A stretch of 42,671 nt of DNA, from NCBI GenBank assembly GCA_965603395.1, contig CBFDCV010000002.1, forward strand, positions 1 through 42,671, given 5' to 3'. How positions within the stretch are numbered: position 1 is the stretch's first letter; each line of letters begins with the position of its first letter. Origin of the DNA: an uncultured candidate division WWE3 bacterium. Its GTDB lineage: Bacteria > Patescibacteriota > WWE3 > UBA101185 > UBA10185. The translations under genes were made by a program, and so were the position numbers. The notes under the pieces were generated by a model. That model ran no database searches. It was given only the letters and a program-made list of their open reading frames with translations, and had not been told where the DNA came from. Shown one piece after another: positions 7,844 through 37,732 of this stretch.

Positions 7844-7919
7844 TGGTCGGGGTGACAGGACTCGAACCTGCGACCTCACGCACCCCATGCGTACGCGCTA
7901 CCAACTGCGCCACACCCCG
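7844..7919 (-). tRNA. tRNA-Pro (anticodon GGG), CCA encoded
   Basis: The reverse complement reads CGGGGTG-TG-GCGC-AGTTGGT-AGCGC ... The anticodon stem is TACGC/GCGTG with loop ATGGGGT (anticodon GGG). The T arm is GCAGG-TTCGAGT-CCTGT and the acceptor 3' strand is CACCCCG-A-CCA. Confidence 0.9.
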
Positions 7920-17751: not shown

Positions 17752-19491
17752 ATGAGTAAACTTACTAAAAAAGAGAGAAAAGAATTAAAAAAGCAAAAAC
17801 TGCACAAGATTCAAGTAAAACCCCAAACAAAAAAGCAGATCCCAAATATGAGGAAAATCACACTCTATAACTGGAAATTTTTACTGTTTATTGTGACTGT
17901 TTGTGTGCTAGTTTATTACAACTCAATAGATAATCAACTTACTTTAGTAGATGATATGCAAGGTATTGTTTTTGACGAAACCATAAGAGATTTAGGAGGA
18001 ATATTACGAAAACATAACCTTCAAAAAGTTTTTTACGCTATCTCTTATAGACTTTTTGAATTTAACCCCTTGCCCATAAGAATAGCCTCAGTTTTTTTAC
18101 ATGTGGTTGCAACAATACTGGTTTTTTACTTTGTATACCTAATTTGGGGTAAGAGGATTGCCCGTATGGCTACCTTAGTATTTGCCGTCCATCCCATCAA
18201 TACAGAAGCTGTAACCTGGATCAGCGGTGCTCCTTATTTATACTTTGCTGTGTTTACGTTTGTTATATTCAATCTTTATCTTCTGTACTATGCCAAGGAT
18301 CAAAAAAAGTATTTGTACGCAGCACTAGTGGTTTTCATTACGGAAATGTTAGTTTTACAATCTCCTTGGGTTCTAGTACCGCCAATAGGTTTAGTAGTTC
18401 TGGATCAGCTCATTCTGGAGAAAAAATATGACCTGTCACGATTGTGGTGGATAGCGCTGTTTGCCGTGCCAATAAGTATTTACCTCATTACTTATTTTGG
18501 CTCAGCTTATGAGAGCAGGCTGGCTGCCAGATCTGCAGGTGGTACAAGAATTACTATGCACACGCAAGCCCTTAAGCCCGTAATAGAGGGGTATCCGTAC
18601 ACAACTTATTTAATGAGTAAATTGTACGTATTTCCAAAAAATTTAACAGTTTATTACGATGGTATGGAAGTTACAACCGGATTATATGTAGCTATGTATC
18701 TAACTTTCATTATTTATATAGTTGTAACCTTATATTTATTAAAAAGGCAGCGGCAAATAGCAGGAATATTAATAATGTTAGCGGTTTTAATAGCCCCGGC
18801 CTACTCACCCGTAAAAATCACGTGGTTTTTATCTGAAAGGTATTTATACTCAGGCACGGCTTTGGTTGGTGTGTTATTTGCAATGGGCACTATTTATTTA
18901 CAAAGAAAATATAATAGTAAATACCTGGCTTACGGCATTTTTGGGTTGGTGTTAGTAATTTTTACCGCCAGAACTATTGTTCGAAACAACGATTGGCAGG
19001 ATACAGAAACCTTATCTTACGCAAATATAAAAGCGGCTCCATTAAGTGTTAGGGCTTACAATGATATGGGAGGTCATTTTTATTACAAGGGGGATATAAT
19101 GCGGGCCGTTGAGTGGTATGAGAAAGGTTTACAAGTGGTACCTACATCAGGCACAGCCATAAATAATCTGGGATTTATATATTTTGAGTTGGGGCCGCTC
19201 ATTTTTTGGGATGATTTGAACTGGCCCGAAAAAGACGAAGCCAAAGCAGACGAGCTATTTAGATACGGTTTATCGGTATTAGAAGAAGGGGGAGAGCCCA
19301 GGACAATATCCTACTTTTTTAATAAATCTTTAGCTTTTAATCCTGACAACGTTGACGTAACCTTGTATACCGCAGATTTGTACATGAGTTTGGGAATGCC
19401 AAATCATGCCGAAGATATGTACTTGCATGCGTTGAATACAGACCCTCAAAACGAGTTTGCTCTAAAGGCTCTTGATGCCTTGTATAATTAA
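17752..19491 (+). CDS. TPR-containing polytopic membrane protein (TMTC/PMT-like GT-C candidate)
   Basis: About 9 TM helices. The first loop reads LVDDMQGIVFDE. The C-terminus carries TPR-like repeats (AYNDMGGHFYYKGDIMRAVEWYEKGLQ..., ADLYMSLGMPNHAEDMYLHALNTDPQN). Confidence 0.6.
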   Translation: MSKLTKKERKELKKQKLHKIQVKPQTKKQIPNMRKITLYNWKFLLFIVTVCVLVYYNSIDNQLTLVDDMQGIVFDETIRDLGGILRKHNLQKVFYAISYRLFEFNPLPIRIASVFLHVVATILVFYFVYLIWGKRIARMATLVFAVHPINTEAVTWISGAPYLYFAVFTFVIFNLYLLYYAKDQKKYLYAALVVFITEMLVLQSPWVLVPPIGLVVLDQLILEKKYDLSRLWWIALFAVPISIYLITYFGSAYESRLAARSAGGTRITMHTQALKPVIEGYPYTTYLMSKLYVFPKNLTVYYDGMEVTTGLYVAMYLTFIIYIVVTLYLLKRQRQIAGILIMLAVLIAPAYSPVKITWFLSERYLYSGTALVGVLFAMGTIYLQRKYNSKYLAYGIFGLVLVIFTARTIVRNNDWQDTETLSYANIKAAPLSVRAYNDMGGHFYYKGDIMRAVEWYEKGLQVVPTSGTAINNLGFIYFELGPLIFWDDLNWPEKDEAKADELFRYGLSVLEEGGEPRTISYFFNKSLAFNPDNVDVTLYTADLYMSLGMPNHAEDMYLHALNTDPQNEFALKALDALYN

Positions 19492-21053
19492 TTTTCCTCA
19501 GCAAAAATATCGGTTTTGTAAACAAAAATTTGAGCCATCGGATCCTTATAACAATTTTTATCAAGTCCCATTTTTTGACCGCAAATTGTTTCTAAAAAAG
19601 TAACTAAGTCCCAATCGTTGTCGGTTGCTACCTGGGGCAATAAAGTTCCGGATCTTCCTCCTAGTATTATCCTAACACCGTGCTTGCCAGCCTCAATGTC
19701 CTCCCAGTTTTTCATACGTTTTTGGGGAGACATAGTAGAGATCTCAATTTCTATTTCTGCCAACTCTTCTTTTGTCACAGGCGGGAACCTGGTATCTTTA
19801 GTAGCTGAGGAAACAGAGACATCTTGAATAGTTTTATATAAAGGTTCTTCAGGTTCGAAATGTCCAACACACCCTCTTAGATCACCGTCTTTGGTCAATG
19901 TGACAAAAGCCCCGATGTGATGGTTTAGGTCAGCATTAATGGGGGTGTAGTTTTGTTGATTGTTTACGTAGTAATTTTCCAAAGTTTCTCTAGCCAGTAT
20001 TAAAGCCTCTTGTTTTGCCTCTTCATCAAGGACAATAGGAGGAATTTTTTGACTGTACATACCAATGGCAGCATAACCAACCACCCTACCCTTATCACCT
20101 GTAATGTCTCCGGAATTCGTGTAATCCAGTTCTTTAATGTTATCGATGCCCATTATTTCCGATAACCTTAAAGCCACTCTTAAAGCATGGTAACCACAAG
20201 CAGAGGTACTCAAACCGGGGTATTTATCAGCCGTATTGAACGCGATCATATTATCCAGAGCCTGTACTTTTCCGGAGAGGATTGCGTTAATAGTGTTTCG
20301 GTCAGCGTAGTTCGCGTCTTGCCAATTAGGGTAATGAGATAGGTCGGTACTAATAATGAGGAGTGTTTCACCATCAAGCACCCCGGCAATTTTGTAGGCC
20401 AAGTAATCGACCAAAGATTTATTAGGTCTCCCCAACAAAATTGGCACTATAGTGTAGTTTTTTTGTACTTTTTCCAAAAAAAGAATGGGAATTTCCAAAG
20501 AGTGTTCCTTTTTATGGGGCGCATCATCCGCCAAAATGTTGTATTTCTCACTGATTAACTTGTTAGCCAAAGCTTGATCTATCTCTATGTCCCTGAAAGG
20601 AGTCTCCCACAACCCCTCTGAATAAACCGCTGCGTGGGAAATGGGACTTTTATGACTTACACCTAAGATAATAATTTTTGAATATTTCTCTCCACTGATT
20701 TGTTTAAAACCCTCCGCGGCAGTTTGGCCGGAGAAATTGATTCCGGCATGAGGAACAATGAGTACCCGCAACTTCCCCGCAACCTCCACCTTCTCTGTTT
20801 GTTCCAAATAGTCTTCCAGCTGTTTATTCAACATAGCCGGTTCTTTAGGATAAAAATCACCTGCTACGGCCGGCTCTCTTATCTTTTGCCTAAGAAGATC
20901 AACACCGGTTCTTAAGGTTTCCTCAGCTTTAGATACAGCAGATTCCCTAGTTTGGTCAAACTCTTCTCCGGTTGGAGCAAATATAATAATAGAAATAATG
21001 AGGCCGAATGTGACAACTAAAGTTATTATTATAAGGAGATACTGTTTTTTCAT
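19488..21053 (-). CDS. Memo-like (AmmeMemoRadiSam protein B) fused to AMMECR1 domain, N-terminal membrane anchor
   Basis: N-terminal TM helix (LLIIITLVVTFGLIISIIIF). Memo motifs are AGDFYPKEP and LIVPHAGINFSGQTAA. The C-terminal AMMECR1 motifs are GAFVTLTKDGDLRGCVGH, DTRFPPV and GTLLPQV. Confidence 0.8.
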   Translation of the reverse strand: MKKQYLLIIITLVVTFGLIISIIIFAPTGEEFDQTRESAVSKAEETLRTGVDLLRQKIREPAVAGDFYPKEPAMLNKQLEDYLEQTEKVEVAGKLRVLIVPHAGINFSGQTAAEGFKQISGEKYSKIIILGVSHKSPISHAAVYSEGLWETPFRDIEIDQALANKLISEKYNILADDAPHKKEHSLEIPILFLEKVQKNYTIVPILLGRPNKSLVDYLAYKIAGVLDGETLLIISTDLSHYPNWQDANYADRNTINAILSGKVQALDNMIAFNTADKYPGLSTSACGYHALRVALRLSEIMGIDNIKELDYTNSGDITGDKGRVVGYAAIGMYSQKIPPIVLDEEAKQEALILARETLENYYVNNQQNYTPINADLNHHIGAFVTLTKDGDLRGCVGHFEPEEPLYKTIQDVSVSSATKDTRFPPVTKEELAEIEIEISTMSPQKRMKNWEDIEAGKHGVRIILGGRSGTLLPQVATDNDWDLVTFLETICGQKMGLDKNCYKDPMAQIFVYKTDIFAEEN

Positions 21054-24935: not shown

Positions 24936-24964
24936 TTGACACATTAATTAATCTCCCATAGACT
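24936..24964 (+). promoter_or_regulatory. sigma70-type promoter placed for a leaderless ACD operon transcript
   Basis: TTGACA (24936-24941), a 17-nt spacer, TAGACT (24959-24964), then 6 nt and ATG 24971. There is no SD. Confidence 0.45.
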
Positions 24965-24970
24965 AAACGT

Positions 24971-27841
24971 ATGCCCACAGAATTAGTAAGTTTTTTTTAT
25001 CCAAAATCAGTGGCTATAATAGGTGCTTCCAGGTCTCCCGAGAAATTAGGTACCATTATTTTAAAAAACATAAGGGAAAGTGGTTTTACTGGGAAAATAT
25101 ACCCGGTTAATCCTCATGCGGACAGTATAAATGATATTAAAGCTTACCCTGACATTACAAAACTGCCCGAAACACCGGAACTGGTGATCATATCAATACC
25201 GTCTTGTCAGGTAGTGGAGGTTTTAAAGCAAGTAGGCGAAAAAGGCACCAAAAACGTAGTAGTTTTATCAGCCGGGTTTAAAGAAATCGGTGAGGAAGGT
25301 GCGAAACTAGAAAAAAACCTGGTAGAAATAGTAAAAAAGCATGAAATCAACCTTTTAGGGCCAAATTGTCTGGGTTTTGTCAATAATCTCGCCCCTATTA
25401 ACGCTACGTTTGGCGAGCCGGTTAAGCAGGTTGGAAATTTACGTTTTATTACTCAATCCGGAGCCATTGCGGCGGGACTTTTTGATTGGTGTAATTTTGT
25501 AGGTTTAGGTTTAAGTGAATTTGTCACATTAGGCAACAAAGCCGGTTTGAGTGAAAACAACATCTTGAGATATTTTCACGAACAAGATCAGAATACTTTA
25601 GCCAACCACAACGGTGAGGGATTATCTAGCCTCTCACCCATTGGTTTATATTTGGAATCTTTAGCAGATGGGAAAGAATTTTTACGCTTGGCTAAAGAAA
25701 TTACTAAAACCAATCCTGTTTTTGTCATCAAACCCGGAAAAACCAAAGCAGCGGCTAAAGCCATGCAGTCCCATACGGGCGCCATTGCCGGTGAGGATGA
25801 TGTGTTAGACGCTGTTTTAAAACATGCTGGAGTTGTAAGATGTCAGACTTTGGAAGATTTTTTCGATGTTGCCAGAGCCTTTGCTTGGGAAGATTTACCC
25901 CAGGGTCCTAAAGTAGCAGTTGTTTCCAATGCCGGAGGCCCGGCAGTTATAAGTGCGGATGCGGTTATTCAGGAAGGGTTGGAATTAGCAGAATTTGATC
26001 AACTCACTAAAGATAAATTAACCGAAGCTCTACCAAGATCAGCAAGCATAGTAAATCCGGTTGATGTGCTCGGGGACGCACTAGCTGATAGGTTTTCCCA
26101 AGCCATTGAAGCGGTATTGCAGACAGATGATGTACATTCTTTGGTAGTGATCTTAACCCCGCAAATCATGACACAGATAGCCCAAACAGCTGAAACCATC
26201 GGTAATTTATCCAAAAAATACAAAAAACCCATATTTTGCTCATTTATAGGTGGAAAACTGGTAGCGGAAGGTGAACAAAAATTGAATGAATATAAAATAC
26301 CCTCTTTTAGATACCCGGAAAGAGCCATTGCAGCCGTAGGAGCTATGTGGAAATTTAAAAAATACCAACTTGAAGCCCATGAGGATGGATTTGTAGAAGA
26401 AACCGTGCAATTGGAATCAGACGACAACTCTTGCCGTGCCGCTATACAAGAGGCCGTAAACAAAAAATACAAAACATTGGATAATCTCATGGCTGATAAA
26501 GTATTATGCTCGGCTGGAATAAAATCGCCGCCAACCAAGGCAGCCGCTAGTTTGGACGAGGCCAAAGAATTTGCAAAAGAACATGGCTGGCCTGTTGTTT
26601 TGAAACTATCATCTCCCGGATTGTTGCACAAAAAAGAAGTGGGCGGCGTGGTGCTGGATATATTAAATGAAAAACAACTGGATGAAGCTTGGCATATGCT
26701 GGAAAGAAAAGTCGAACAGTTGGACCGGGGAATTAAGGAACATTTGGTTTTCCAAATCCAAAAAGACATTCAAAATGGCGTAGAAGTGATAGTTGGCTTC
26801 AAGCATGATCCAACTTTTGGTCCGGTATTGCTTTTTGGAGCCGGCGGATCTTATGCGGAATTAATCGATGATAAAAACTTACATTTACTACCTATAACAC
26901 GTCAGCAAGTTGTTGAGTTAGTGCAAAAATCTAAAATTTACGAAATACTAAAAGGCCATGAAGGTGAGCCACCTTATTCCTTGGAAAAACTGTATGATCT
27001 GATCTTACGTGTTGCTAAGCTGGAAACCATGATTCCTGAGGCTGAGGATATAGAAATCAATCCGGTTATAGTAACATTAAATGATGTGTGGGCTGTGGAT
27101 GGAAAAATCATTATGAAAGAAATCGAACAAAAAACAACTCCAAATCCTCCAACCATGAAAACAGCTACTGCTACTAAACATGAGGTGTTGGCAGCGTATT
27201 TTCATTATTATGAGGTGGAAACTGAAGAACCGTTTGATTTCAAACCCGGGCAGTATATTAGTGTTAAGGTAGCGCCGGATGCCATCAGGGCATATTCTAT
27301 TACTACCAAACTGGGACCTAACAAATTTGCCTTGTTGGTGGATATTAGACCGGGCGGACCGGGCTCAAAGTTTTTCGAGAGTTTAAAACCTGGCGATAAA
27401 CTGCCCTTTTTAGGACCTTTTGGAAAGTTCACTCTTGAATTGGAAGAAAGTGTGGAACAACTACTGTTTTTAGGTACAGGATCAGGTATGAGCGCACTTA
27501 GGTGCATGATAGATTCGGCCCTAAAAGAGCAAGGAGTGAAAACACCTATGAAATTATATTTTGGGCTTACTTTTCCTCATGAGATCTTTTGGCAGGATTA
27601 TTTTGAAAATCTTAAAAAAGAGTACCCAAACTTTGATTATGATATTGCTATATTCAAACCTGATGAATCTTGGACCGGGCACACAGGATTTATCACAGAA
27701 TATGTAAAGCAGGACTTCCCGGATACTAGTAAAAGTGTGGCCTATTTGTGTGGTCACAGAGCTATGATCGCTGACGCTAGTGAGTTATTGCAGGCCAACG
27801 GCTGCCCCAAAGAAAGAATTTTTACAGAAAGGTTTGTGTAA
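24971..27841 (+). CDS. ADP-forming acetyl-CoA synthetase (fused alpha-beta) with C-terminal FNR-type FAD/NAD(P)-binding domain
   Basis: CoA-binding N-terminus (VAIIGASRSPEKLG), the phosphohistidine segment MQSHTGAIAGEDD and an ATP-grasp half (to about aa 715). About 220 aa follow carrying RAYS, GGPGSKF, LGPFG, LFLGTGSGMS and YLCGHRAM. Confidence 0.85.
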   Translation: MPTELVSFFYPKSVAIIGASRSPEKLGTIILKNIRESGFTGKIYPVNPHADSINDIKAYPDITKLPETPELVIISIPSCQVVEVLKQVGEKGTKNVVVLSAGFKEIGEEGAKLEKNLVEIVKKHEINLLGPNCLGFVNNLAPINATFGEPVKQVGNLRFITQSGAIAAGLFDWCNFVGLGLSEFVTLGNKAGLSENNILRYFHEQDQNTLANHNGEGLSSLSPIGLYLESLADGKEFLRLAKEITKTNPVFVIKPGKTKAAAKAMQSHTGAIAGEDDVLDAVLKHAGVVRCQTLEDFFDVARAFAWEDLPQGPKVAVVSNAGGPAVISADAVIQEGLELAEFDQLTKDKLTEALPRSASIVNPVDVLGDALADRFSQAIEAVLQTDDVHSLVVILTPQIMTQIAQTAETIGNLSKKYKKPIFCSFIGGKLVAEGEQKLNEYKIPSFRYPERAIAAVGAMWKFKKYQLEAHEDGFVEETVQLESDDNSCRAAIQEAVNKKYKTLDNLMADKVLCSAGIKSPPTKAAASLDEAKEFAKEHGWPVVLKLSSPGLLHKKEVGGVVLDILNEKQLDEAWHMLERKVEQLDRGIKEHLVFQIQKDIQNGVEVIVGFKHDPTFGPVLLFGAGGSYAELIDDKNLHLLPITRQQVVELVQKSKIYEILKGHEGEPPYSLEKLYDLILRVAKLETMIPEAEDIEINPVIVTLNDVWAVDGKIIMKEIEQKTTPNPPTMKTATATKHEVLAAYFHYYEVETEEPFDFKPGQYISVKVAPDAIRAYSITTKLGPNKFALLVDIRPGGPGSKFFESLKPGDKLPFLGPFGKFTLELEESVEQLLFLGTGSGMSALRCMIDSALKEQGVKTPMKLYFGLTFPHEIFWQDYFENLKKEYPNFDYDIAIFKPDESWTGHTGFITEYVKQDFPDTSKSVAYLCGHRAMIADASELLQANGCPKERIFTERFV

Positions 27842-29574
27842 TGCAAGAAATTTTTACACTAAAAATTGCCGGTATGGCAGGGCAAGGAATAAAATCCGCA
27901 GGCATTTTATATGCTCGATTTGCTAATCGTTCGGGACGGTTTATTTATAACTATATTGAATACCCATCTATAATTAGGGGCGGACATAATGTGATGCAAA
28001 TAAACATTTGTAATGAAGAGGTAACCGGTCCTAGCAGCAAAACAGACTTTTTAATTGCCCTAAATCAAGAATCCATTGATTTTCATGTGGATGAACTAAC
28101 TAAGGGAGCGGGAATTGTGTTTGATGGAGATGATAATTTGGATACTTCCAAAGTGCCTGAGGGCGTGAATCTTTGTCCGGTTCCTTTGTCTGCCTTGGCT
28201 AAAGAGGCTGGTGGCGGTGAGTTGTTGGTAAATACTGTGGCTTTGGGAGCTGCTACAGCTCATTTGGGTGGCAGTATGGATATTTTGAAAAATCTTGTTC
28301 ATGAAGAATTTGCCGACAAGGGTGAGGAGATTGTGCAGGCTGATCAAAAAGCTGCTGAGTTAGGTTACAATTTTGCAAAAGAAAATTACCCCAATGTAAT
28401 AAATGATACTTTAAAACCTGAGGACACTATGTCTTCCGCTATTCCTAGGATGGTTATCAACGGTAATGAAGCGGCTGCCTTAGGCGCCATTGCCGGTGGA
28501 GTGCAGTTTGCCGCTATTTATCCCATGTCACCTATATCAAATATATTGCATGTACTGGCTAAACATCAGGAAACATACGGTTATGTGTATAAACAGCCTG
28601 AAGATGAGATTGCGGCCATAAATATGGCTTTAGGAGCTTCCTTTGCCGGTGCTAGGGCCATGACCGCTACCTCAGGTGGAGGTTTTGCCTTAATGACTGA
28701 AAGCTACGGTTTGGCAGGCATTGCAGAGCTACCGGTAGTGATTATTGAGGGTCAGCGCGGAGGTCCGGCTACAGGAATTCCTACTTGGAGCAGCCAGGGA
28801 GATCTACGATTTGTATTACATGCTCATCAGGATGATTTTCCCAGGATTATATTAACCCCCGGAGATCCGGAAGAAACTTTTTACATGACCATGGAAGCTT
28901 TTAATTTGGCAGAAAAATACCAAACACCTGTAGTGGTACTAATCGATAAAAATATTTGTGAAAATGATAAGAGCATTCAGTATCTGAATATCAAGGATTT
29001 TGAGGTGGATAGAGGTAATTTCACCATGGAAAAAGTCGAAAACTATGAAAGATACGCTTTATCAGATGATGGAATTTCTCATAGATCAGTTCCCGGAGTA
29101 GGGAATTACTTTATTGCTAATTCCGATGAGCACGACGCTATTGGTTACTCCAGTGAAGAAATTCAAAATCGCAATGAGCAAATGGAAAAAAGAATGAAAA
29201 AGCTGGAAACTTGCGCTCAACAAGACATGCCCGAACCGGAGTTGTTCGGTCCGGAAAATGCTGATCTGACAATAATTTCATGGGGTAGTAATAAAGGAAC
29301 CATCACACAGGCACTGAAAAAATTCGATAATGTTAACTTTTTACATTTAACTTGGATAAATCCTTTTCCGGTGGCCAAAGTAAAAAAAGTACTGAGCAAA
29401 GCAAAACACGTTATTAATGTTGAATGCAACTTCACAGCACACCTGGGCGGTATCATCAGAGAAAAAACAGGTATTGAAATTAAGGACAACTTCTTAAAAT
29501 ATGATGGCAGACCAATCTATGTAGAGGAGATGGTCGAAAAGATAAATTCTGTTTTGAAAGGAGGCAAATCATGA
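27841..29574 (+). CDS. 2-oxoacid:ferredoxin oxidoreductase, fused gamma-alpha subunit
   Basis: TAATG overlap with the upstream stop. Gamma-type N-terminus (IAGMAGQGIKSAG). Alpha core (NGNEAAALGAIAGGVQFAAIYPMSPIS, EGQRGGPATGIPT). Confidence 0.85.
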   Translation: MQEIFTLKIAGMAGQGIKSAGILYARFANRSGRFIYNYIEYPSIIRGGHNVMQINICNEEVTGPSSKTDFLIALNQESIDFHVDELTKGAGIVFDGDDNLDTSKVPEGVNLCPVPLSALAKEAGGGELLVNTVALGAATAHLGGSMDILKNLVHEEFADKGEEIVQADQKAAELGYNFAKENYPNVINDTLKPEDTMSSAIPRMVINGNEAAALGAIAGGVQFAAIYPMSPISNILHVLAKHQETYGYVYKQPEDEIAAINMALGASFAGARAMTATSGGGFALMTESYGLAGIAELPVVIIEGQRGGPATGIPTWSSQGDLRFVLHAHQDDFPRIILTPGDPEETFYMTMEAFNLAEKYQTPVVVLIDKNICENDKSIQYLNIKDFEVDRGNFTMEKVENYERYALSDDGISHRSVPGVGNYFIANSDEHDAIGYSSEEIQNRNEQMEKRMKKLETCAQQDMPEPELFGPENADLTIISWGSNKGTITQALKKFDNVNFLHLTWINPFPVAKVKKVLSKAKHVINVECNFTAHLGGIIREKTGIEIKDNFLKYDGRPIYVEEMVEKINSVLKGGKS

Positions 29575-30428
29575 CTACATTAGCAGATTTAAAAACACCA
29601 TATGACCCGAACTGGTGTCCCGGTTGCGGAAATCTACCTTTATGGTTGGCTTTTAAAAACGCAGCTGTAGAAAAAGACTGGGATAATACCAATACGGCTA
29701 TAGTGGCCGGTATAGGATGCCATGGACACATTTTAAACTTTACCAAGCTAACTTCCTTTGAGGGTTTGCACGGCAGGCCGGTTCCTGTAGCGTCGGGTAT
29801 AAAAATGGCCAATCATCGCTTAAACGTATTTGCTTTTTCCGGTGATGGAGACTCTTTAGGTGAAGGCGGCAACCATTTTATACACGCGGCTAGAAGAAAC
29901 CACGATATAACTTTAATTTTGCACGATAACGGATTGTATGCACTAACAACAGGGCAGACATCTCCGGCTACGCCTCATGGGTTGAAGACCAAATCTACGC
30001 CGCAGGGAAATCCTGACTATCCGCTTATGCCCATAACTATGGCTATAGCGGCAGGAGCTACTTTTGTAGCCAGAGGGTTTACCGGAGATATAAAGCAGCT
30101 GACCGACTTATTTATTCAAGCCAATGAACACAAGGGATTTGCCTTGGTGGATGTCATGCAGCCATGTCAGACTTTCAATAAAGTTTTAACTCACGAGTTT
30201 TATCAGCAGAATAAGTACTATTTGGGAGAAGATCATGATGTTACAAACAAAGAAGCAGCCTTCAAAAAATCATTAGAGTTTGGTGAAAAAGCTATACCTT
30301 TGGGAGTATTTTATAAAGAGGAAAAACAAAGCTATGAGAGCGTATTGCCCCAATTAGCAGAAACTCCTCTTATAGAGCATTCACCGGTTCGAAAAGATTT
30401 GGACGGGTTGTTCAAAAAGTATATTTAG
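29571..30428 (+). CDS. 2-oxoacid:ferredoxin oxidoreductase, beta (TPP-binding) subunit
   Basis: ATGA overlap with the alpha subunit. WCPGCGN, and the TPP motif GDGDSLGEGGNHFIHAARRNHDITLILHDNGLYALTTGQ. Confidence 0.85.
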   Translation: MTTLADLKTPYDPNWCPGCGNLPLWLAFKNAAVEKDWDNTNTAIVAGIGCHGHILNFTKLTSFEGLHGRPVPVASGIKMANHRLNVFAFSGDGDSLGEGGNHFIHAARRNHDITLILHDNGLYALTTGQTSPATPHGLKTKSTPQGNPDYPLMPITMAIAAGATFVARGFTGDIKQLTDLFIQANEHKGFALVDVMQPCQTFNKVLTHEFYQQNKYYLGEDHDVTNKEAAFKKSLEFGEKAIPLGVFYKEEKQSYESVLPQLAETPLIEHSPVRKDLDGLFKKYI

Positions 30429-30443
30429 TTTATTCTTAAGTTT

Positions 30444-30701
30444 ATGAGTGATTTCTCAGAAAATGACAAAATATTACAAATCGGCAAGTACAAAGTTCAG
30501 GTTGTAAGAGAACTTTGTATAGGGGCCGCTTCCTGTTTAGCTTTTTCTCCGGATAGCTTTACCTTAGACGGAGAGAACAAGGCAGTGATCACGGAAGGAA
30601 GCACTGATGAAGAAAATATCATCATGGCAGCTCAATCATGTCCCACCAAGGCCATTATTGTCGAAGATACAGAAACAGGTCAGCAAGTTTGGCCGGCTTG
30701 A
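30444..30701 (+). CDS. small single-cluster ferredoxin
   Basis: 85 aa. CIGAASCLAFSPDSF ... AAQSCPTKAI shows the Cx5C...CP pattern of single [3Fe-4S]/[4Fe-4S] ferredoxins. Confidence 0.8.
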   Translation: MSDFSENDKILQIGKYKVQVVRELCIGAASCLAFSPDSFTLDGENKAVITEGSTDEENIIMAAQSCPTKAIIVEDTETGQQVWPA

Positions 30702-30708
30702 TCGAACA

Positions 30709-30760
30709 TAAAAAAAGAGGACAGGCATCAGTTATATTTAACTGAGGTTCACCCGTCCTC
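30709..30760 (-). terminator. intrinsic terminator (minus strand; hairpin also follows the plus-strand ferredoxin gene)
   Basis: The outer stem GAGGACAGG/CCCGTCCTC has one mismatch and encloses the inner stem TCAGTTA-TATT-TAACTGA. The minus strand reads the hairpin followed by a run of at least seven Ts. It abuts the stop codon of 30760..31476. Confidence 0.5.
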
Positions 30761-31476
30761 TAGGCGTTATACGCGTTGACTACTTCCTTGGTCCAGTTCA
30801 GGAGATTTGCTGAGTCTATTGGTGTTTTTGTTAGGTTAACAGCTACCCATTTTAAATGTACTGCTACTGTGTTTCCTACCTTAAGTGATGGCTTGAAAAG
30901 TCTAGGGTCGAATTCCACTTCTTCCCGGAGGTTGGTAGTAACCAGTTTTCTTCTCTTATTAGTCAGAGAGATCAGATCTACAGCGGCTGTCTTTTCTGAA
31001 ATTTCTGTTATTACGCCAAATCTAACCATGCAATTATTGACTCCACCAAGGTCCTTTCTTGTTCCCCCACTTAAAAAATGACCTAGCAAAACTTGATAAA
31101 GGTGCATAGGGATGAAATTTGCAGGTGCAATCTTTCTTAATTCATCCAAGTTCTCCCTAGGATAGCCTTTGACTACCATTTCGGAGAGAAGAAGCTCAAA
31201 ATGTTTGGGCTCAGCTTTATGTAGATCATCACTGCCCAACCAATAAGCACGCGTTACCTCCGGTTTAAATGCGTCAGCTGTGCCTATCATGCTTTTAATG
31301 GTTGTCAGGTACGGAAACATGTTGGCAAATTGACCAAATTCTTTCCTAACACCTTTGCATTGGCCGGTAAGAATACATTTGATGATTGCTTCTTCCGGTA
31401 GTTTTCCGGTGCCGCAAGAACTATTTCTGTAAGCTGGGTAAGCAAATCTTGCCGCAAGCTGTAGGCCACTACTCAT
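30760..31476 (-). CDS. uncharacterised conserved protein (DUF6390-like?) with HypC-like C-terminal segment
   Basis: Strong SD (AAAAGGAGGAAAAG before the ATG). FAYPAYRNSSCGTG, RAYWLGSD, IPMHLYQVL, NNCMVRFGVI and VGNTVAVHLKWVAVNL match what I recall of DUF6390. This is unverified. Confidence 0.5.
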   Translation of the reverse strand: MSSGLQLAARFAYPAYRNSSCGTGKLPEEAIIKCILTGQCKGVRKEFGQFANMFPYLTTIKSMIGTADAFKPEVTRAYWLGSDDLHKAEPKHFELLLSEMVVKGYPRENLDELRKIAPANFIPMHLYQVLLGHFLSGGTRKDLGGVNNCMVRFGVITEISEKTAAVDLISLTNKRRKLVTTNLREEVEFDPRLFKPSLKVGNTVAVHLKWVAVNLTKTPIDSANLLNWTKEVVNAYNA

Positions 31477-31550: not shown

Positions 31551-31952
31551 ATGAAAGTCTATGTTTTCGGAAATCAGGATATGCTCGAAGATAGCTGGGC
31601 ACATAAACATACAGAGAAACTAAGTGCTGATTTTCCTAAAATTAAATTCATTTTCATTAAACCAAACGAAGACCTACCGTTTGTAGATGAGAAACAGATT
31701 GTTATTATGGATGCGGTTGAGGGAATTTCCAAGGCCCGAATTTTTGAAGATGCTGATCCGGATAAGATCAAACTCTCTCCTCGTACCTCAGTGCATGATT
31801 TTGATCTTGGTTTTCAATTAAAATATCTAAAGAAAATTGGGAAGTTGGGAAAAATCACTATTTTAGGGATTCCCATGACGGGAGATGCTGACTACAGTTC
31901 TATCCACTCCATGGTCAAAAAATTAGTAGCACAAGACATGCAAGGATCGTAA
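31551..31952 (+). CDS. [NiFe] hydrogenase maturation endopeptidase (HycI/HyaD family)
   Basis: MKVYVFGNQDMLEDSWA (GNxxxxDD-like), IVIMDAVEG and SVHDFDLG correspond to the three metal-ligand regions. 133 aa. Confidence 0.7.
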   Translation: MKVYVFGNQDMLEDSWAHKHTEKLSADFPKIKFIFIKPNEDLPFVDEKQIVIMDAVEGISKARIFEDADPDKIKLSPRTSVHDFDLGFQLKYLKKIGKLGKITILGIPMTGDADYSSIHSMVKKLVAQDMQGS

Positions 31953-33193
31953 GCCCGGATAATTTTTTCAGCTTCTAAACGTAAAATGTCCTGGTGTTTA
32001 TCCATATTTTCGTTAAAATATTTTTTTAAATCGTTTTCTATGTTTATTTGGTTTTGAGCTGTAGGTACAATAACATCGTAATCTATGATCATGCCTTTTT
32101 CGTCAATTTCTGCCATGTGGTACAAAATTCCTCTTGGGGCCTCCACTACGCCCACCCCTCTGCCTGCTTGAGGGGGTTTTCTAATTGGTTTTTCATCTTT
32201 TAACTCAATATTTCTTAAAATATCTAAAGAATCGTCTACGCAGTGTAAAATCTCAATAGCTTGAGCTAGGTTATTATCGAAGACGTTATTAGAAGGGAAA
32301 GCGTCTAATATTTCTCTTAAACTTTCAACAGTTTTGGGATGGAGCTGATCTTTGTTGAGATTTATTCGAGCCAAAGAGCCAACTAAGTAGTCCTCATGAT
32401 CATCAGAAAATACATAACCCTCAGCTTGAGAGTAAGGGATAACTACTGATTTCAAAAAGTCATGGAAATTTTCTTCAGGAACTTTTTTGCCACTAGAGTT
32501 GACCACTTCTCCTTCCAGAAAATCAAACCTGTCGGGATTTCGAATACAAAGATAATCAGAATTTCTTATCAGCTCCTCTTTCCAATCAAAGAAAAGTTTT
32601 ACACCTCTAAGAACTTGGGAGCGGATTTTTTCTAGATCAGCGATTAATTCCGGAAATTTGGATGAGTCCGGTAACTTTAATAAGCCACCGACAGTAGGAT
32701 AAGGTGCGTGAATAGCGGCGCCGATTGTTACATCAGAGATTTTTGTGCCCACCCTTTTAATATCAAAAGAATCGTGTAGTAAAGTATGGCCAAAATCATC
32801 GTGATCATCAGGAATGTCTAAAATGGAGTCTATGCCCAACACATCAGGCAAAACAAAAAAGTATAGGTGCAAGGCGTGGTCCCTGATCATCAAAGCATTA
32901 TAAGCAAGCCTTCTTAAAGTCATAGTTTGCTCAGTGTTTTCAATGCCTTGGGATTTTTCTATGGCTTCCAGGGAGGCAAAAAGGTGTGCTACAGAACAAG
33001 TACCACAAATCCTGGACAAAAATGAACCCGCGGCAATATAAGGTTTGCCCTTGACCGCTTCAGTGTAAAACCTTCGATAATCCTTGATAATAAATTTTAA
33101 ATCTTTTACCTGGCCGTTTCTGACAGTTACCTCTAAACCAGCTGTTCCTTCAACTTTTGATATAGAATCTATGTTTATTTCACCACTGTGCAT
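31892..33193 (-). CDS. [NiFe] hydrogenase large subunit (group 3-like)
   Basis: N-terminal RICGTCSVAH and C-terminal DPCMSCATN Ni-Fe ligand motifs. At 433 aa the size fits cytoplasmic group 3 enzymes. Confidence 0.9.
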   Translation of the reverse strand: MHSGEINIDSISKVEGTAGLEVTVRNGQVKDLKFIIKDYRRFYTEAVKGKPYIAAGSFLSRICGTCSVAHLFASLEAIEKSQGIENTEQTMTLRRLAYNALMIRDHALHLYFFVLPDVLGIDSILDIPDDHDDFGHTLLHDSFDIKRVGTKISDVTIGAAIHAPYPTVGGLLKLPDSSKFPELIADLEKIRSQVLRGVKLFFDWKEELIRNSDYLCIRNPDRFDFLEGEVVNSSGKKVPEENFHDFLKSVVIPYSQAEGYVFSDDHEDYLVGSLARINLNKDQLHPKTVESLREILDAFPSNNVFDNNLAQAIEILHCVDDSLDILRNIELKDEKPIRKPPQAGRGVGVVEAPRGILYHMAEIDEKGMIIDYDVIVPTAQNQINIENDLKKYFNENMDKHQDILRLEAEKIIRAYDPCMSCATNFLTMEWIEL

Positions 33194-33194
33194 A

Positions 33195-33719
33195 TTAAGG
33201 TATGTTAAAAATTTTTAAATATTTTTCTAAAACTTGATAAAAAGTTTGTACGTTCATAGGGCAGCCATCTACCTTGTCATCTACCTGTATGACTTCCTCC
33301 AGTTTTTGTACTTTATCACTGTAGTCAAAATGATCCAAATACCATTGGATGCGTTCGTTTATTTGCTCATCGCCAAAGTCATTTCTGCTGGCAGAGGGCA
33401 TGCCTGTGCAAGCGCAAGAACCTATGGCTACCACGTATTTGGCGTTGTCCCTTATTTTTTTAACTTCCTCTTCTTGTGTAGACGAAGAAACTGCCCCTTC
33501 GATGAAAGCCACGTCCAAATTTTCCAGCTTATTGTTAGTTTTGAGAGATCTTACATGTTGAAAATCGACTACTTTTTTCCATTCGTCAAAATGATCGTTT
33601 AGTAGTTCCGTAAATAATATAGTGCTATCTTCGCAACAAGTAAATGAAAACCACCCTATGGCCATTTTTTTCTTTTTGGTTTGGGTTTCTTGTACCTGTT
33701 CTTGTTTTTGTTCGTCCAT
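33195..33719 (-). CDS. [NiFe] hydrogenase small subunit, minimal (proximal-cluster only)
   Basis: 174 aa. The cysteines occur only in FTCCEDS, GSCACTGMP and DGCPMN. It lies 1 nt upstream of the large subunit. An alternative start is Met19 (MAIGWFSF). Confidence 0.8.
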   Translation of the reverse strand: MDEQKQEQVQETQTKKKKMAIGWFSFTCCEDSTILFTELLNDHFDEWKKVVDFQHVRSLKTNNKLENLDVAFIEGAVSSSTQEEEVKKIRDNAKYVVAIGSCACTGMPSASRNDFGDEQINERIQWYLDHFDYSDKVQKLEEVIQVDDKVDGCPMNVQTFYQVLEKYLKIFNIP

Positions 33720-35617: not shown

Positions 35618-37732
35618 TTAAAAACCTCCAAAGTAATAGTCTCTTGATCTTTCATAATAAGCGTTAGGTAGTAACATGCAGTTTAATGTGTCTGGAAGGG
35701 GTATTTCAGTGATATTAGCTACCCTTAAAAACTCATAATTGTGATATCCGCACCCCGGGGAGTTGTTGAAGTGGTAGTAATTAAGCTTAATCTTTTCTTG
35801 GTTTTTAGGAAGGTACCTCTCTGAAATAGGTACGTTTGAGAGGAAATACACATTTTGGAAGTTCTCAGCCATCTCCATAACTGTTGTATCAAGTAACTCT
35901 TCCTCAGACCTTAACATAAGAATATTTTTACCATAATAATATTTCATAGGACCTGCCACATAATCATTAAAGTTTTTCGCATACTTACTTGGGTAAATGT
36001 TTTTGTTAACAAAAAGAATTATTGAGTCGCTTCCGATTTTTTTATCAATGTTTTTAAAGAAGTTAACGTCAACTCCTTCATATTTTCCTATTTGAAAAAT
36101 AGAAAAGGTTAAGAAGTACAGACTTGTGAGTATTAAGAATATGTAGCCTAGAACTCTAGTTCTTTTCTTTTGAATGATTTCACCAAGGAAAATTCCCACC
36201 GTTAATAATATGGCAGGAACTACCTCCACAAAGAAATATCGGGCGTTGTAGTAGTCATATCTAACAAAGCCGGTTTTATAGACGTAAATAACCAAAAAGT
36301 AAGTACTAATGAAGGCAAGAAAGTGGTATACGCTAACTTTCTTTCTAAAAATATTTAATAGTGCTACCGAAACAAAGATAATGAATCCTACAACACTAAC
36401 GTAGTTTATTATTGAGACCAACGTGGCATGCTTAATAGTATCAAATCCCCTATAAAGCATATTCCAACGTACCAGCGCTGTGTTTGATCCGGAAAAGAGG
36501 ATGTCGAAGTCTTTTACGGTAGCGCGGTAAATGATATAGAAAAAAGCAGAAGATAGTAGTATATACGACTGTTTAAGGGTTTTAGAAAATAGGCTGTAAA
36601 TTTTCTGATTGGAAAATACAATAAATATTAAAACTAACAAAATAAGAAAAACGAGTATCTTTAAGTTTGTTTCCAAGTTAAGAGGAATAATTTTATCTAA
36701 AGCAAAACCAATTGTTTTTGGATAAAGCCCGTTATATAAGGGAAACATAAACAAACGGTAGTAGATGTAGGTGGCGCTAAGTATCAAGATATTTGCCAAA
36801 GAATATAAAATTAACGCTATCTTGTTACTATTGTAATAATTGAGTAAAACTATCAGTAGTAAAACTGGAAAGTAGATAAAAAACGTCATTCTAGTGAATG
36901 AAAAAACAAAAAATGACATAAGAGAAAAGATTAAAAACAGACAGTCTTTGTAACCGTTGTTTTTGCAGTTCAAATATCTGAGAAGAAAATATAGACCGGA
37001 TGAGGAAAACGCTAAAGCGGAGATTTCTCCTACAGGGAACTTAGAGAAAAATAAATGTAAAGGATTAATGGAAAACAGCAACATTACTATTAGGGACGTA
37101 CGCTTGTTTTTTGTTAAATGATATGTGATGAGGTAAGAATTAATTAAAGTTATGGCAGAAAATAGGGTTAATAGGAACACTCTATTATTTGAACCTAGTA
37201 AAAAAGAAGAGACGCTTAAATAAGAAGGGTAGGCAGGGTAAAACCTCATTGTATATTCCGAGTTTGGTCTATTCCACTTTTCGAAACTGGGCATTATGTA
37301 GTTACCGTCACGGTCATATAGTTCTTTTTGACCGTCTGTTAGTGTTTCCCTGAACTCATCGACCATGTACAGTTTATTATCCAGTTCATATTGCTTTGAA
37401 ATACTTATGTAAGTGCCTTGGTCCTGGCCACCTAGTAGATACAAGGTGGGCGGTAGTCTAATCAATACAGCCGCTAGAAGTAATACTACTGCACTGACGG
37501 TAAATCTTTTATCCCTAGAAACAGCGCCCAAGTATTTTTTAAAAAGAATTATAAAGATAGAAAACAATAATAAACTGAGAGTGATGGAATAAACTGGTTC
37601 GAAACTTTTTAAGGCCAGCAAAATAATATTAACAATTCCCACGGTTGAAATAACTACTAACAGCAAATCATAGAAATACAGGCCTATTTTATTATTGTTG
37701 TTTTTCTTATCCATCGGTTTTTTTGTGGGCAA
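35618..37732 (-). CDS. very large polytopic membrane protein (possible GT-C glycosyltransferase or polymerase)
   Basis: 704 aa with 15 or more hydrophobic helices. The first loop reads LGGQDQGTYISISKQ. The C-terminal domain is soluble. The start is TTG 37732 or ATG 37714. The gene is very AT-rich. Confidence 0.6.
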   Translation of the reverse strand: MPTKKPMDKKNNNNKIGLYFYDLLLVVISTVGIVNIILLALKSFEPVYSITLSLLLFSIFIILFKKYLGAVSRDKRFTVSAVVLLLAAVLIRLPPTLYLLGGQDQGTYISISKQYELDNKLYMVDEFRETLTDGQKELYDRDGNYIMPSFEKWNRPNSEYTMRFYPAYPSYLSVSSFLLGSNNRVFLLTLFSAITLINSYLITYHLTKNKRTSLIVMLLFSINPLHLFFSKFPVGEISALAFSSSGLYFLLRYLNCKNNGYKDCLFLIFSLMSFFVFSFTRMTFFIYFPVLLLIVLLNYYNSNKIALILYSLANILILSATYIYYRLFMFPLYNGLYPKTIGFALDKIIPLNLETNLKILVFLILLVLIFIVFSNQKIYSLFSKTLKQSYILLSSAFFYIIYRATVKDFDILFSGSNTALVRWNMLYRGFDTIKHATLVSIINYVSVVGFIIFVSVALLNIFRKKVSVYHFLAFISTYFLVIYVYKTGFVRYDYYNARYFFVEVVPAILLTVGIFLGEIIQKKRTRVLGYIFLILTSLYFLTFSIFQIGKYEGVDVNFFKNIDKKIGSDSIILFVNKNIYPSKYAKNFNDYVAGPMKYYYGKNILMLRSEEELLDTTVMEMAENFQNVYFLSNVPISERYLPKNQEKIKLNYYHFNNSPGCGYHNYEFLRVANITEIPLPDTLNCMLLPNAYYERSRDYYFGGF

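Follow-up and report, generated by a model that had tools for sequence, protein, structure and literature searches.

Bacteria of the Patescibacteria (CPR) have few energy-yielding reactions. The route through a 2-oxoacid:ferredoxin oxidoreductase (OFOR) and an ADP-forming acyl-CoA synthetase (ACD) is the chief way in which they gain extra ATP, with electron disposal as the bottleneck. Characterized ACDs, such as the 4-hydroxybutyryl-CoA synthetase of Nitrosopumilus (PDB 8wzu) and ACD1 of Ca. Korarchaeum (4xyl/4xym), are composed of five subdomains in alpha-then-beta order, with histidines in an SHTG and an HK..GGV motif. PatZ/Pat proteins (9isq, 9it0) have an ACD-type body of ~700 aa followed by a different enzyme domain, a GNAT domain, at the C-terminus. 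The flavoprotein reductases NqrF, BenC, MmoC and Fre combine FAD_binding_6 and NAD_binding_1 domains and carry xYS, GxxS, GTGxG and CG motifs. NqrF, BenC and MmoC also own a fused [2Fe-2S] ferredoxin domain, and each passes electrons from NADH to a ferredoxin-type Fe-S centre. In the pyruvate:NADP+ oxidoreductase (PNO) of Euglena and Cryptosporidium, PFOR is fused to a module of the NADPH-cytochrome P450 reductase type, so that 2-oxoacid oxidation is linked to the reduction of pyridine nucleotides. In group 3b [NiFe] hydrogenases, the gamma subunit (HydG/ShyC) has its own Fe-S domain and is encoded together with a beta subunit. The CPR 'hyd2' hydrogenases have no adjacent beta or gamma genes, have a truncated small subunit (mean 164 aa) and may 'support function with unknown genes' (Jaffe et al. 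2020, PMC7304191). NAD-binding proteins were seen near hyd2 in that study, but were set aside because they were non-proximal and on the other strand.

We analyzed a window of 42,671 nucleotides from an uncultured candidate division WWE3 bacterium (contig CBFDCV010000002.1), in which an ACD is continuous with a module of the ferredoxin-NADP reductase (FNR) family. The gene lies in a cluster with an OFOR, a ferredoxin and a [NiFe] hydrogenase (Table 1).

Table 1 Features of the ACD-FNR locus, with positions in the 42,671-nucleotide window
Feature	Position	Strand	Basis or remark
Promoter-like site TTGACA-17-TAGACT	24936..24964	+	Divergent intergenic region, directly upstream of the ACD-FNR start
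ACD-FNR gene, 956 aa	24971..27841	+	ORF translation
ACD part, aa 1-715: fused alpha-beta ADP-forming acyl-CoA synthetase	24971..27115	+	Pfam, NCBIfam, PDB profile, Foldseek
Phosphohistidine His268	25772-25774	+	ACD part
Second catalytic His553	26627-26629	+	ACD part
Linker, aa 716-747 (~30 aa)	27116..27211	+	AlphaFold, alignment
FNR-family module, aa 748-956 (~210 aa): FAD_binding_6 + NAD_binding_1, no Fe-S domain	27212..27841	+	Pfam, NCBIfam, PDB profile, Foldseek
OFOR alpha subunit, gamma and alpha domains fused	27841..29574	+	Pfam POR, POR_N, PFOR_II
OFOR beta subunit, TPP-binding	29571..30428	+	Pfam TPP_enzyme_C, PFO_beta_C
Ferredoxin, 85 aa, single-cluster, three Cys (C25-x5-C31 ... C66-P; CxxAxxC...CP)	30444..30701	+	Pfam Fer4_13, Fer4_15
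DUF6390 protein	30760..31476	-	Pfam DUF6390, E 9e-24
HycI-like hydrogenase maturation protease	31551..31952	+	Pfam HycI, E 2.2e-4 (weak, below cut-off)
[NiFe] hydrogenase large subunit, 433 aa, 3b-related ('hyd2' type)	31892..33193	-	Pfam NiFeSe_Hases
Truncated hydrogenase small subunit, 174 aa, proximal-cluster Cys only	33195..33719	-	Pfam Oxidored_q6

The ACD-FNR gene is a single ORF that runs from an ATG start to a TAA stop with no internal stops. A sequence-only reading of this DNA had claimed a complete alpha-beta ACD and an FNR-type module in one polypeptide, and all of the motifs that it quoted are present (MQSHTGAIAG, RAYS, GGPGSKF, LGPFG, LFLGTGSGMS and YLCGHRAM). The five Pfam families that it expected all matched above their gathering scores: CoA_binding_2 (12-138), Succ_CoA_lig (155-304), ATP-grasp_5 (495-714, E 1.8e-57, in agreement with an ATP-grasp half ending near aa 715), FAD_binding_6 (748-820, E 3e-9; 37.5 bits, cut-off 21.1) and NAD_binding_1 (833-937, E 2.6e-14; 54.2 bits, cut-off 22). 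Ligase_CoA_2 (315-463) matched in addition. The promoter-like site upstream of the gene was the top-scoring site of our promoter scan (10/12). We note that it is weak evidence, because the scan returned 18 sites in total where 22.7 were expected from shuffled sequence, and thus no excess.

The ACD part resembles the characterized enzymes closely. It matched 8wzu in the profile search with an E-value of 2.7e-126, and Foldseek gave TM scores of 0.90-0.93 to 8wzu and CkcACD1. The five subdomains and both catalytic His motifs place it in the NDP-forming acyl-CoA synthetase superfamily. Its SHTG loop and HK..GGV motif align with those of 8wzu, 4xyl_A and 4xyl_B, and all 16 of the diverse members compared keep H268 and H553. 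Its domains and catalytic residues predict that the ACD part is active as an ADP-forming acyl-CoA synthetase. The NCBIfam TIGR02717 and 4-hydroxybutyrate-CoA ligase models matched with E-values of 1e-147 to 1e-151, all below their equivalog cut-offs: TIGR02717, the model for acetate--CoA ligase (ADP-forming), scored 490.6 bits (cut-off 567), NF045494 445.6 (cut-off 1200) and NF045493 504.5 (cut-off 1300). The models thus assign neither acetyl-CoA nor another acyl substrate to the protein. What distinguishes the window protein from the characterized ACDs is a further 240 aa at the C-terminus, the linker and the FNR module, which we saw in none of them.

The linker is predicted to be flexible or disordered. 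AlphaFold pLDDT falls below 50 at residues 719-726, and the length of the linker varies among orthologues, with indels in the alignment (for instance, an insert of 15 aa in the orthologue P0025). The two-domain fold, the flavin and nicotinamide motifs (RAYS, GGPGS, GTGSG and YLCG) and a terminal aromatic residue (Phe955, aligned with the terminal Phe of NqrF) assign the module that follows to the FNR superfamily. In the alignment of 16 members, Y775, S776, G796, G798, S799, T836, G837, G839, Y925, G928 and F955 are invariant. NCBIfam models of the reductase halves of MmoC, BenC, AntC, NqrF and Fre match the module, the FAD/NADH domain of NqrF was found with an E-value of 8.6e-36 in the PDB profile search, and Foldseek aligned the module to NqrF (TM 0.72) and to cytochrome b5 reductase (TM 0.78). 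The window protein keeps the Arg of the RxYS motif, but this residue is replaced by Asn in 45 out of 61 orthologues, and flavin binding may therefore be atypical across much of the family. Unlike NqrF, BenC and MmoC, the module has no Fe-S domain of its own: NAD_binding_1 ends at residue 937 of 956, so there is no room for one at the C-terminus, and a three-Cys ferredoxin is encoded separately in the operon.

We also compared the protein with two other known types. PatZ and Pat share the general layout, but the appendage of the window protein is an FNR flavoprotein, no GNAT domain was found by Pfam or NCBIfam, and the ACD His loop is conserved. The similarity of the FNR module to the gamma subunits of sulfhydrogenases is distant (E 1e-6 to 3e-11), and the NCBIfam gamma models (HydG/ShyC) scored 25.8-43.3 bits against cut-offs of 395-650. 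The suggestion that the module could be a gamma-like partner of the hydrogenase did not hold in that form, as the match is far below the family cut-offs and the Fe-S domain is missing. Any role of the FNR domain in hydrogenase function would be via the free ferredoxin.

The same architecture recurs in databases. Of 78 GTDB species-representative loci, 55 carry a single ACD-FNR ORF of about 945-997 aa. So do 18 independent metagenome contigs and at least 120 protein clusters (the best 120, down to 55% identity). Among these best 120 clusters, 119 have both Pfam domains of the FNR module and the remaining one lists PF00175 alone; two N-terminally truncated entries lack the CoA-binding matches. 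Because the same continuous ORF is present in independent genomes, contigs and clusters, the junction is not an assembly artefact, and the misassembly or missed stop that the sequence-only reading had asked to exclude can be set aside. That reading also knew of no described ACD with a flavin reductase. In our literature search, too, no paper describing an ACD-FNR fusion came up, but the architecture itself is widespread and conserved in databases, where the named records belong to Patescibacteria. Its members go under the generic name 'acetate--CoA ligase family protein', and JGI often labels them 'acetyltransferase'.

The gene is followed by a two-subunit OFOR without a delta-subunit gene in the operon. 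The alpha and beta subunits scored above the cut-offs of TIGR03710 (618 bits, cut-off 482.75) and TIGR02177 (301.7 bits, cut-off 261.9), respectively, and the two-subunit OFORs 6n2n and 5b46 matched with an E-value of 1e-85. The coupling to ACD-FNR by a TAATG overlap was seen as claimed (gtgTAATGcaa at 27839-27843), as was the ferredoxin that comes next, whose three-Cys CxxAxxC...CP pattern is retained in 45 of 46 orthologues. The hydrogenase genes lie 4 kb downstream on the opposite strand and, in line with the sequence-only reading, no beta-subunit or gamma-subunit genes were found in the window cluster. The large subunit carries the metal-binding motifs RICGTC and DPCMSC, and its best NCBIfam match is the sulfhydrogenase HydA (E 2e-66, far below cut-off). 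The small subunit aligns with residues 2-153 of the 261-aa HydD model. With its 3b-related large subunit, its shortened small subunit and neither beta nor gamma genes beside it, the hydrogenase is of the CPR hyd2 type as defined in PMC7304191, by these features rather than by placement in a tree.

To what extent these genes stay together was assessed in both directions. In 40 species genomes whose sequence extends 8 kb or more downstream of the FNR module, the OFOR alpha subunit was found in 39, the beta subunit in 38, the ferredoxin in 36, the NiFe large subunit in 30 and DUF6390 in 27. The order ACD-FNR, OFOR alpha, OFOR beta, ferredoxin is conserved, and the distance from the FNR stop to the OFOR alpha match is mostly 0-30 nt. 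Ten of these genomes, which have the OFOR and/or the ferredoxin, show no hydrogenase within 8-10 kb, and the linkage of the FNR module is thus slightly tighter to the OFOR and the ferredoxin than to the hydrogenase. In the reverse test, we used 22 metagenome loci anchored on hyd2 with at least 8 kb downstream. Ferredoxin and FNR were both present in 20, both OFOR subunits in 19, an ACD in 19 (18 of these fused), DUF6390 in 18 and the HycI-like protease in all 22; two loci (L135 and L152) had none of the ACD, FNR, OFOR and ferredoxin genes within 10 kb. ACD-FNR, two-subunit OFOR, three-Cys ferredoxin, DUF6390, HycI-like protease and hyd2 therefore form a conserved cluster. An EamA-type transporter lies within the operon of relatives.

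Some loci contain the parts unfused. The FNR is a separate gene of 235-266 aa directly ahead of the OFOR and ferredoxin genes in L052, L053 and L055, and adjoins only a ferredoxin in L058; a weaker homologue (34% identical) also adjoins a ferredoxin in L062. ACD and FNR are separate genes in L057, L060 and L124, and an ACD without FNR directly precedes the OFOR in L072 and L076. In L145 and L132, ACD-FNR adjoins hyd2 with no OFOR between them (a ferredoxin is present in L145, and none was detected in L132). In a neighbor-joining tree without support values, unfused forms were basal or nested. These natural split forms indicate that the fusion is a Rosetta-stone join of neighbouring operon genes and not a redox step inside ACD catalysis. 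The earlier idea that the fusion tethers NAD(P)H/ferredoxin exchange to the ATP-yielding step fits the genomic evidence as far as the exchange is concerned. The covalent link is not required, since unfused versions exist, and tethering would offer at most co-expression or scaffolding.

We consider it probable that ACD-FNR is a bifunctional protein from two fused neighbouring genes, in a cluster of OFOR, ACD, FNR and hyd2 activities with ferredoxin as the hub; beyond the identity of the domains, this reading rests on gene context. The OFOR would convert 2-oxoacid and CoA into acyl-CoA, CO2 and reduced ferredoxin, and the ACD part, whose substrate would be the acyl-CoA from the co-translated OFOR, would convert acyl-CoA, ADP and Pi into the acid and ATP. 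The FNR part, a minimal Fre/NqrF-type flavoprotein on a flexible tether, may move electrons between NAD(P)(H) and the three-Cys ferredoxin, which would accept electrons from the OFOR and, most likely, also serve hyd2 as redox partner. In favour of such a role of the FNR part, its closest relatives NqrF, MmoC and BenC all use NADH to reduce an Fe-S centre of the ferredoxin type. Reduced ferredoxin could then be re-oxidized either to NAD(P)H via the FNR domain or to H2 via hyd2, and all steps would be reversible. The fusion would add no redox chemistry to the ACD; it would ensure that the ATP-yielding and the ferredoxin-recycling activity are produced in a 1:1 ratio, and the two may also assemble together. 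The logic recalls PNO, with its FNR-family module, although there the reductase sits on the oxidoreductase itself and has an FMN domain, while here it sits on the ACD, the next enzyme of the pathway, and would receive electrons via a free ferredoxin. A scheme of POR, then ACS, plus a ferredoxin-NADP reductase was independently proposed for a Microgenomates genome without hydrogenase (PMC7143001).

This hydrogenase-free genome also counts against a different reading, in which the FNR domain is chiefly the missing diaphorase of hyd2 (H2 + NAD(P)+ <-> NAD(P)H), the ferredoxin standing in for beta and the ACD-fused FNR for gamma, with a secondary association to OFOR and ACD. The recurrence of ferredoxin and FNR in the hyd2-anchored loci, the two loci in which ACD-FNR adjoins hyd2 directly and a genuine, if weak, similarity to the gamma subunits of sulfhydrogenases speak for it, and the partners of a hyd2 with a truncated small subunit and without beta/gamma are an acknowledged gap (PMC7304191). 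The tighter linkage to OFOR and ferredoxin, the ten genomes with no hydrogenase nearby, the lack of an Fe-S domain after the NAD-binding domain and best matches to NqrF, BenC and MmoC, not to HydG or ShyC, point the other way. We thus hold a chiefly diaphorase role to be possible but doubtful. It overlaps with the ferredoxin-hub explanation, as the ferredoxin is shared, and the two do not exclude each other.

Two further readings concern the direction of the pathway and the activity of the ACD. The cluster could run in a reductive, assimilatory direction, in which the ACD spends ATP to activate acetate or a different acid, the OFOR carboxylates the acyl-CoA to a 2-oxoacid with reduced ferredoxin, and hyd2 (from H2) and/or FNR (from NAD(P)H) supply that reduced ferredoxin. 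The reversibility in principle of ACD, OFOR, FNR and group 3 hydrogenases, which is established biochemistry, would allow this, and the EamA-type transporter of relatives may fit it too. The closest solved two-subunit OFOR is 6n2n, a 2-oxoglutarate:ferredoxin oxidoreductase from an organism in which the TCA cycle runs reductively. However, this direction needs a ferredoxin of very low potential, and the potentials of three-Cys (3Fe-4S-type) ferredoxins are in many cases, if not in all, higher; reduction of ferredoxin by NAD(P)H is also uphill. WWE3 RAAC2 came from acetate-amended sediment (PMC3812714), but CPR genomes are mostly interpreted as fermenters that rely on ACD for ATP (PMC3812714, PMC7143001). 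As none of the present evidence favours the reductive direction, we regard it as improbable. The ACD-like part could instead be a non-catalytic sensor of acyl-CoA or nucleotide that regulates the C-terminal reductase, in parallel to PatZ/Pat. PatZ is the top structural match of the whole chain, with the same ACD body and an extra C-terminal domain, and the 'acetyltransferase' label is frequent. Yet the two catalytic histidines do not vary, and their motifs, likewise invariant, line up with those of characterized ligases, the His loop aligns poorly with PatZ (E 0.065) compared with 8wzu (7.6e-14), and ACD and FNR each also occur without the other, with ACD directly ahead of the OFOR in two loci. 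We give a sensor role hardly any credence.

For the ferredoxin-hub reading, the fusion is a Rosetta stone by which four activities are tied into one pathway. It also exposes systematic under-annotation, with hundreds of entries named just 'acetate--CoA ligase family protein' or 'acetyltransferase'. The conserved two-way association suggests that the NAD-binding proteins near hyd2 are the FNR end of the ACD fusion, accompanied by a dedicated three-Cys ferredoxin. From their gene context, the FNR domain and this ferredoxin are concrete candidates for the electron path of hyd2. It is unlikely, in our view, that ACD-FNR, OFOR, ferredoxin and hyd2 make up one physical or functional unit, a modular NAD(P)-linked [NiFe] hydrogenase system of a new type. 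If they did, the free ferredoxin and the ACD-borne FNR domain would stand in for the beta-gamma diaphorase of group 3b enzymes, and a single metabolon would oxidize 2-oxoacids, make ATP, balance NAD(P)H and exchange H2. Such an arrangement would account for the functioning of the minimal hyd2 enzyme in CPR bacteria.

The predicted fusion of an ADP-forming acyl-CoA synthetase (ACD) with a ferredoxin-NADP-reductase-type FAD/NAD(P) module (FNR) is encoded as one 956-aa open reading frame that begins with ATG and has no internal stops in translation. Six Pfam domains, each scoring above its gathering threshold, lie along this polypeptide (see the table); all those expected by the sequence-only reading are among them, and the motifs it cited are all present. 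Residues 6-702 match NCBIfam ACD-family models (E 1e-147 to 1e-151, with scores below the equivalog cut-offs), and residues 747-956 match the reductase halves of MmoC, BenC, AntC, NqrF and Fre. The two halves are joined by a flexible tether, which has pLDDT < 50 at residues 719-726 of the AlphaFold model and varies in length among aligned orthologues. The linker (~30 aa) hides no Fe-S domain, as it has no Pfam or NCBIfam match and no cysteine motif. The ACD-FNR stop codon and the start codon that follows share a TAATG, which confirms the sequence-only reading, and ACD-FNR is translationally coupled to a two-subunit 2-oxoacid:ferredoxin oxidoreductase (OFOR).

Features of the window and domains of the ACD-FNR protein
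Feature	Position	Strand	Remarks
ACD-FNR	24971-27841	+
CoA_binding_2	residues 12-138 of ACD-FNR		Pfam
Succ_CoA_lig	residues 155-304 of ACD-FNR		Pfam
Ligase_CoA_2	residues 315-463 of ACD-FNR		Pfam
ATP-grasp_5	residues 495-714 of ACD-FNR		Pfam
FAD_binding_6	residues 748-820 of ACD-FNR		Pfam
NAD_binding_1	residues 833-937 of ACD-FNR		Pfam
OFORa, fused gamma-alpha subunit	27841-29574	+	TIGR03710, 618 bits, above cut-off
OFORb, beta subunit	29571-30428	+	downstream of OFORa, strand shared with ACD-FNR
Ferredoxin (Fd), 85 aa, single-cluster	30444-30701	+	only three Cys, C-x5-C...C-P
DUF6390 gene	30760-31476	-
HycI-like protease, weak	31551-31952	+	Pfam HycI 2.2e-4, sub-threshold
NiFe hydrogenase large subunit	31892-33193	-	RICGTC and DPCMSC motifs
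Hydrogenase small subunit, 174 aa	33195-33719	-	proximal-cluster cysteines only
704-aa ORF	35618-37732	-	no Pfam match
Memo-AMMECR1 fusion gene	19488-21053	-
tRNA-Pro (CGG, GGG)	5729-5804 and 7844-7919	-

Gene matches in the window also bear out the neighbouring OFOR, ferredoxin and NiFe hydrogenase, and the hydrogenase cluster contains no beta or gamma diaphorase genes. The small subunit aligns with the first 153 of the 261 positions of the sulfhydrogenase delta model. Divergent genes upstream of ACD-FNR (glyoxalase-like, M10 peptidase, T2SSE ATPase) are unrelated to the cluster; by tblastn, the peptidase also lies upstream in about eight related loci, and the closest locus, L001, was alone in giving a glyoxalase homologue. 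A promoter and terminator scan gave overall no excess over chance, and an Rfam scan of the window returned no family above threshold besides the two tRNA-Pro genes.

Searching 5.8 billion proteins, we recovered at least 120 ACD-FNR protein clusters at 55-93% identity. Nearly all have full-length coverage, 940-1018 aa and an identical set of seven Pfam accessions; the exceptions are four clusters truncated at the N- or C-terminus (861-906 aa) and one that lists a single FNR-module domain. Where database names are given (Patescibacteria, WWE3, Woesebacteria), they go no further than 'acetate--CoA ligase family protein' or 'acetyltransferase'. A profile of the junction plus FNR found 78 loci among the GTDB species representatives, and 55 of them, including the closed WWE3 RAAC2 genome (CP006914), have the ACD and FNR matches in one reading frame of about 945-997 aa. 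The fusion is continuous in 18 further independent metagenome contigs as well. Because the same continuous ORF recurs across these genomes and contigs, a mis-assembly or missed stop at the junction is excluded without recourse to reads. Only one orthologue (L042, 8035-10168) has a frameshift in the ACD part: its tblastn match splits at residue 418-419 and its ORF is just 540 aa; the gene is either a pseudogene or was sequenced with an error. The taxon names that automated TPA MAGs bear ('Saccharibacteria', 'Gammaproteobacteria', 'Pseudomonadales', 'Woesearchaeota') were kept out of the evidence. Since clustering at 50% identity reduces the fused form to about three full-length representatives, ACD-FNR is, judged by sequence, one compact family that was not repeatedly invented.

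The genomic context, compared by tblastn of the window proteins against related loci, is also conserved. The recurrent order is ACD-FNR, OFORa, OFORb, Fd, (DUF6390), HycI-like and (large and small hydrogenase subunits), in records of WWE3 and of Levy-, Woese-, Ames-, Davies-, Collier-, Uhr- and Moranbacteria. Among 40 loci anchored on FNR with at least 8 kb downstream, 39 have OFORa, 38 OFORb, 36 Fd and 30 the NiFe large subunit (ACD was not counted in this set). The converse set comprised 22 metagenome contigs with at least 8 kb downstream, anchored on the large subunit of hyd2, the CPR 3b-related hydrogenase type; it contains OFORa in 19, OFORb in 19, Fd in 20, FNR in 20 and ACD in 19 (18 fused), and is biased to near kin because it was drawn from the query's 80 closest relatives. 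The dedicated ferredoxin and, usually, hyd2 are co-conserved with ACD-FNR and OFOR. DUF6390, a conserved part of the hyd2 cluster, occurs in 27/40 of the loci anchored on FNR and 18/22 of those anchored on the hydrogenase (for instance, L013 14708-15430 and L084 about 3038). It shares only 28-39% identity between genomes with neighbouring genes at 55-88%, and may be a hydrogenase accessory protein that evolves fast. Relatives have an EamA/DMT-family transporter gene after Fd on the operon strand (L013 13834-14739, +; L055 13517-14491, +), which is missing from the window between Fd and DUF6390 (30701-30760); it could import or export a carboxylate substrate or product. The ferredoxin has exactly three cysteines (CxxAxxC...CP) in 45 of 46 orthologues. 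Such an arrangement is characteristic of ferredoxins with a [3Fe-4S] cluster, and the sequence suggests either that cluster or a fourth ligand other than Cys.

Each half shows the sequence and predicted fold features of an active enzyme. In the ACD half, H268 (MQSHTGA) and H553 (LLHKKEVGGV) are invariant in an alignment of 16 diverse family members. In the characterised ADP-forming ligases 8wzu, 4xyl_A and 4xyl_B, they line up with the phosphohistidine loop and with the His motif of the beta subunit. The AlphaFold model (mean pLDDT 83) superposes on 8wzu and on Ca. Korarchaeum ACD1 with TM 0.90-0.93. A regulatory role like that of PatZ, an ACD-like acetyltransferase, was rejected because the catalytic histidines are conserved; over the His loop, the alignment with PatZ itself is poor (E 0.065). 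We also looked for docking of FNR on ACD in the whole-chain model, which has pTM 0.65, a disordered linker and no PAE.

In the FNR half, the alignment shows Y775, S776, G796, G798, S799, G815, G818, F820, T836, G837, G839, Y925, G928 and the C-terminal F955 to be invariant. Compared with known structures, the family profile matches the FAD/NADH domain of NqrF best (E 8.6e-36), followed by MmoC, BenC and cytochrome b5 reductase, with weaker scores for plant-type FNRs; Foldseek TM is 0.72 against NqrF and 0.78 against cytochrome b5 reductase. These nearest relatives are NADH enzymes, and an acidic residue is kept after strand beta2 (E/D-I/V-F-W in the alignment), which together are only suggestive of NADH as the cofactor. 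The Tyr and Ser of the RxYS motif (RAYS in the window protein, 27287-27298, aa 773-776) are invariant. Asn takes the place of the Arg in 45 of 61 orthologous modules (orthologues in L001-L061), where flavin binding or flavin choice may differ from canonical FNRs. On the NCBIfam comparison, membership of the hydrogenase gamma family was rejected.

The hyd2 large subunit of the window ends in ...DPCMSCATNFLTMEWIEL, in which Asn424, invariant in 11 orthologues, occupies a position before the C-terminal cleavage site that is usually His or Arg in NiFe hydrogenases. The HycI-like gene runs convergently into the 3' end of the large-subunit gene, with 61 nt shared. Maturation of hyd2 may be atypical. 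Two hyd2 clusters (L135, L152) consist of small subunit, large subunit and HycI-like genes, plus DUF6390 in L135, and lack ACD, FNR, OFOR and Fd across the 10 kb to either side. We found no alternative redox partners within that distance; the genes around them (Crp-family regulator, malic enzyme, histidine phosphatase, DsbD-thioredoxin) are unrelated.

Unfused variants bear on how the fusion arose and what it does. A separate FNR gene of 235-266 aa lies immediately 5' of OFORab-Fd in L052, L053 and L055, and where its upstream genes were checked they are unrelated to ACD (in L055, LeuRS and a nucleotidyltransferase; in L053, an NYN-domain gene). FNR adjoins only Fd in L058, and a weaker homologue (34% identity) adjoins an Fd in L062. 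ACD and FNR are separate genes with others in between in L057, L060 and L124. In L057 a Pyr_redox_2 (PF07992) flavoprotein gene lies between them (2769-4004, +), probably the 'fam013' noted by Jaffe et al. near some hyd2, and L024 and L124 have a second, distant FNR-like gene nearby. ACD without FNR lies immediately 5' of OFORab in L072 and L076, and ACD-FNR lies beside hyd2 with no OFOR between in L145, which has Fd, and L132, where none was detected. In a rough neighbour-joining tree of the FNR modules, without support values, L058, L057 and L060 are basal to the fused clade and L052, L053 and L055 are nested within it; this placement suggests a single fusion event, then a few fissions. FNR also occurs as a free protein in the same place in the operon, so the most plausible effect of the fusion is to set stoichiometry or co-assembly, with no chemistry added to ACD. 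The sequence-only reading, broadly on target overall, suggested that the fusion could tether redox exchange to the ATP-yielding step; the fusion is real, but given the natural split forms the mechanistic tethering was overstated.

So was its rarity, as the architecture is common in Patescibacteria, but no description of an ACD-FNR fusion was found in the literature searched, where coverage of subscription journals is limited and absence is no proof. For WWE3 RAAC2, Kantor et al. (2013; PMC3812714) listed PFOR alpha/beta and an ADP-forming ACS as separate items, along with 'a ferredoxin oxidoreductase-like protein' and a 3b-like hydrogenase, and noted no fusion. Kadnikov et al. (2020; PMC7143001) proposed POR followed by ACS, and a ferredoxin-NADP reductase, in a hydrogenase-free Microgenomates genome. 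Jaffe et al. [quoted passage not shown] (2024; PMC10811913) belong to other CPR lineages and are not hyd2.

In the mechanism we propose, OFOR would form acyl-CoA and reduce Fd, ACD would make ATP from that acyl-CoA, and the FNR domain would equilibrate Fd with NAD(P)(H). With only a proximal cluster in its small subunit, hyd2 would trade electrons with the same Fd, whose potential would decide the possible directions of electron flow. ACD-FNR is a new conserved domain architecture that unites two well-known enzyme families, and its main value lies in the candidates it offers, the three-Cys ferredoxin and the ACD-borne FNR domain, for the electron path of CPR hyd2.
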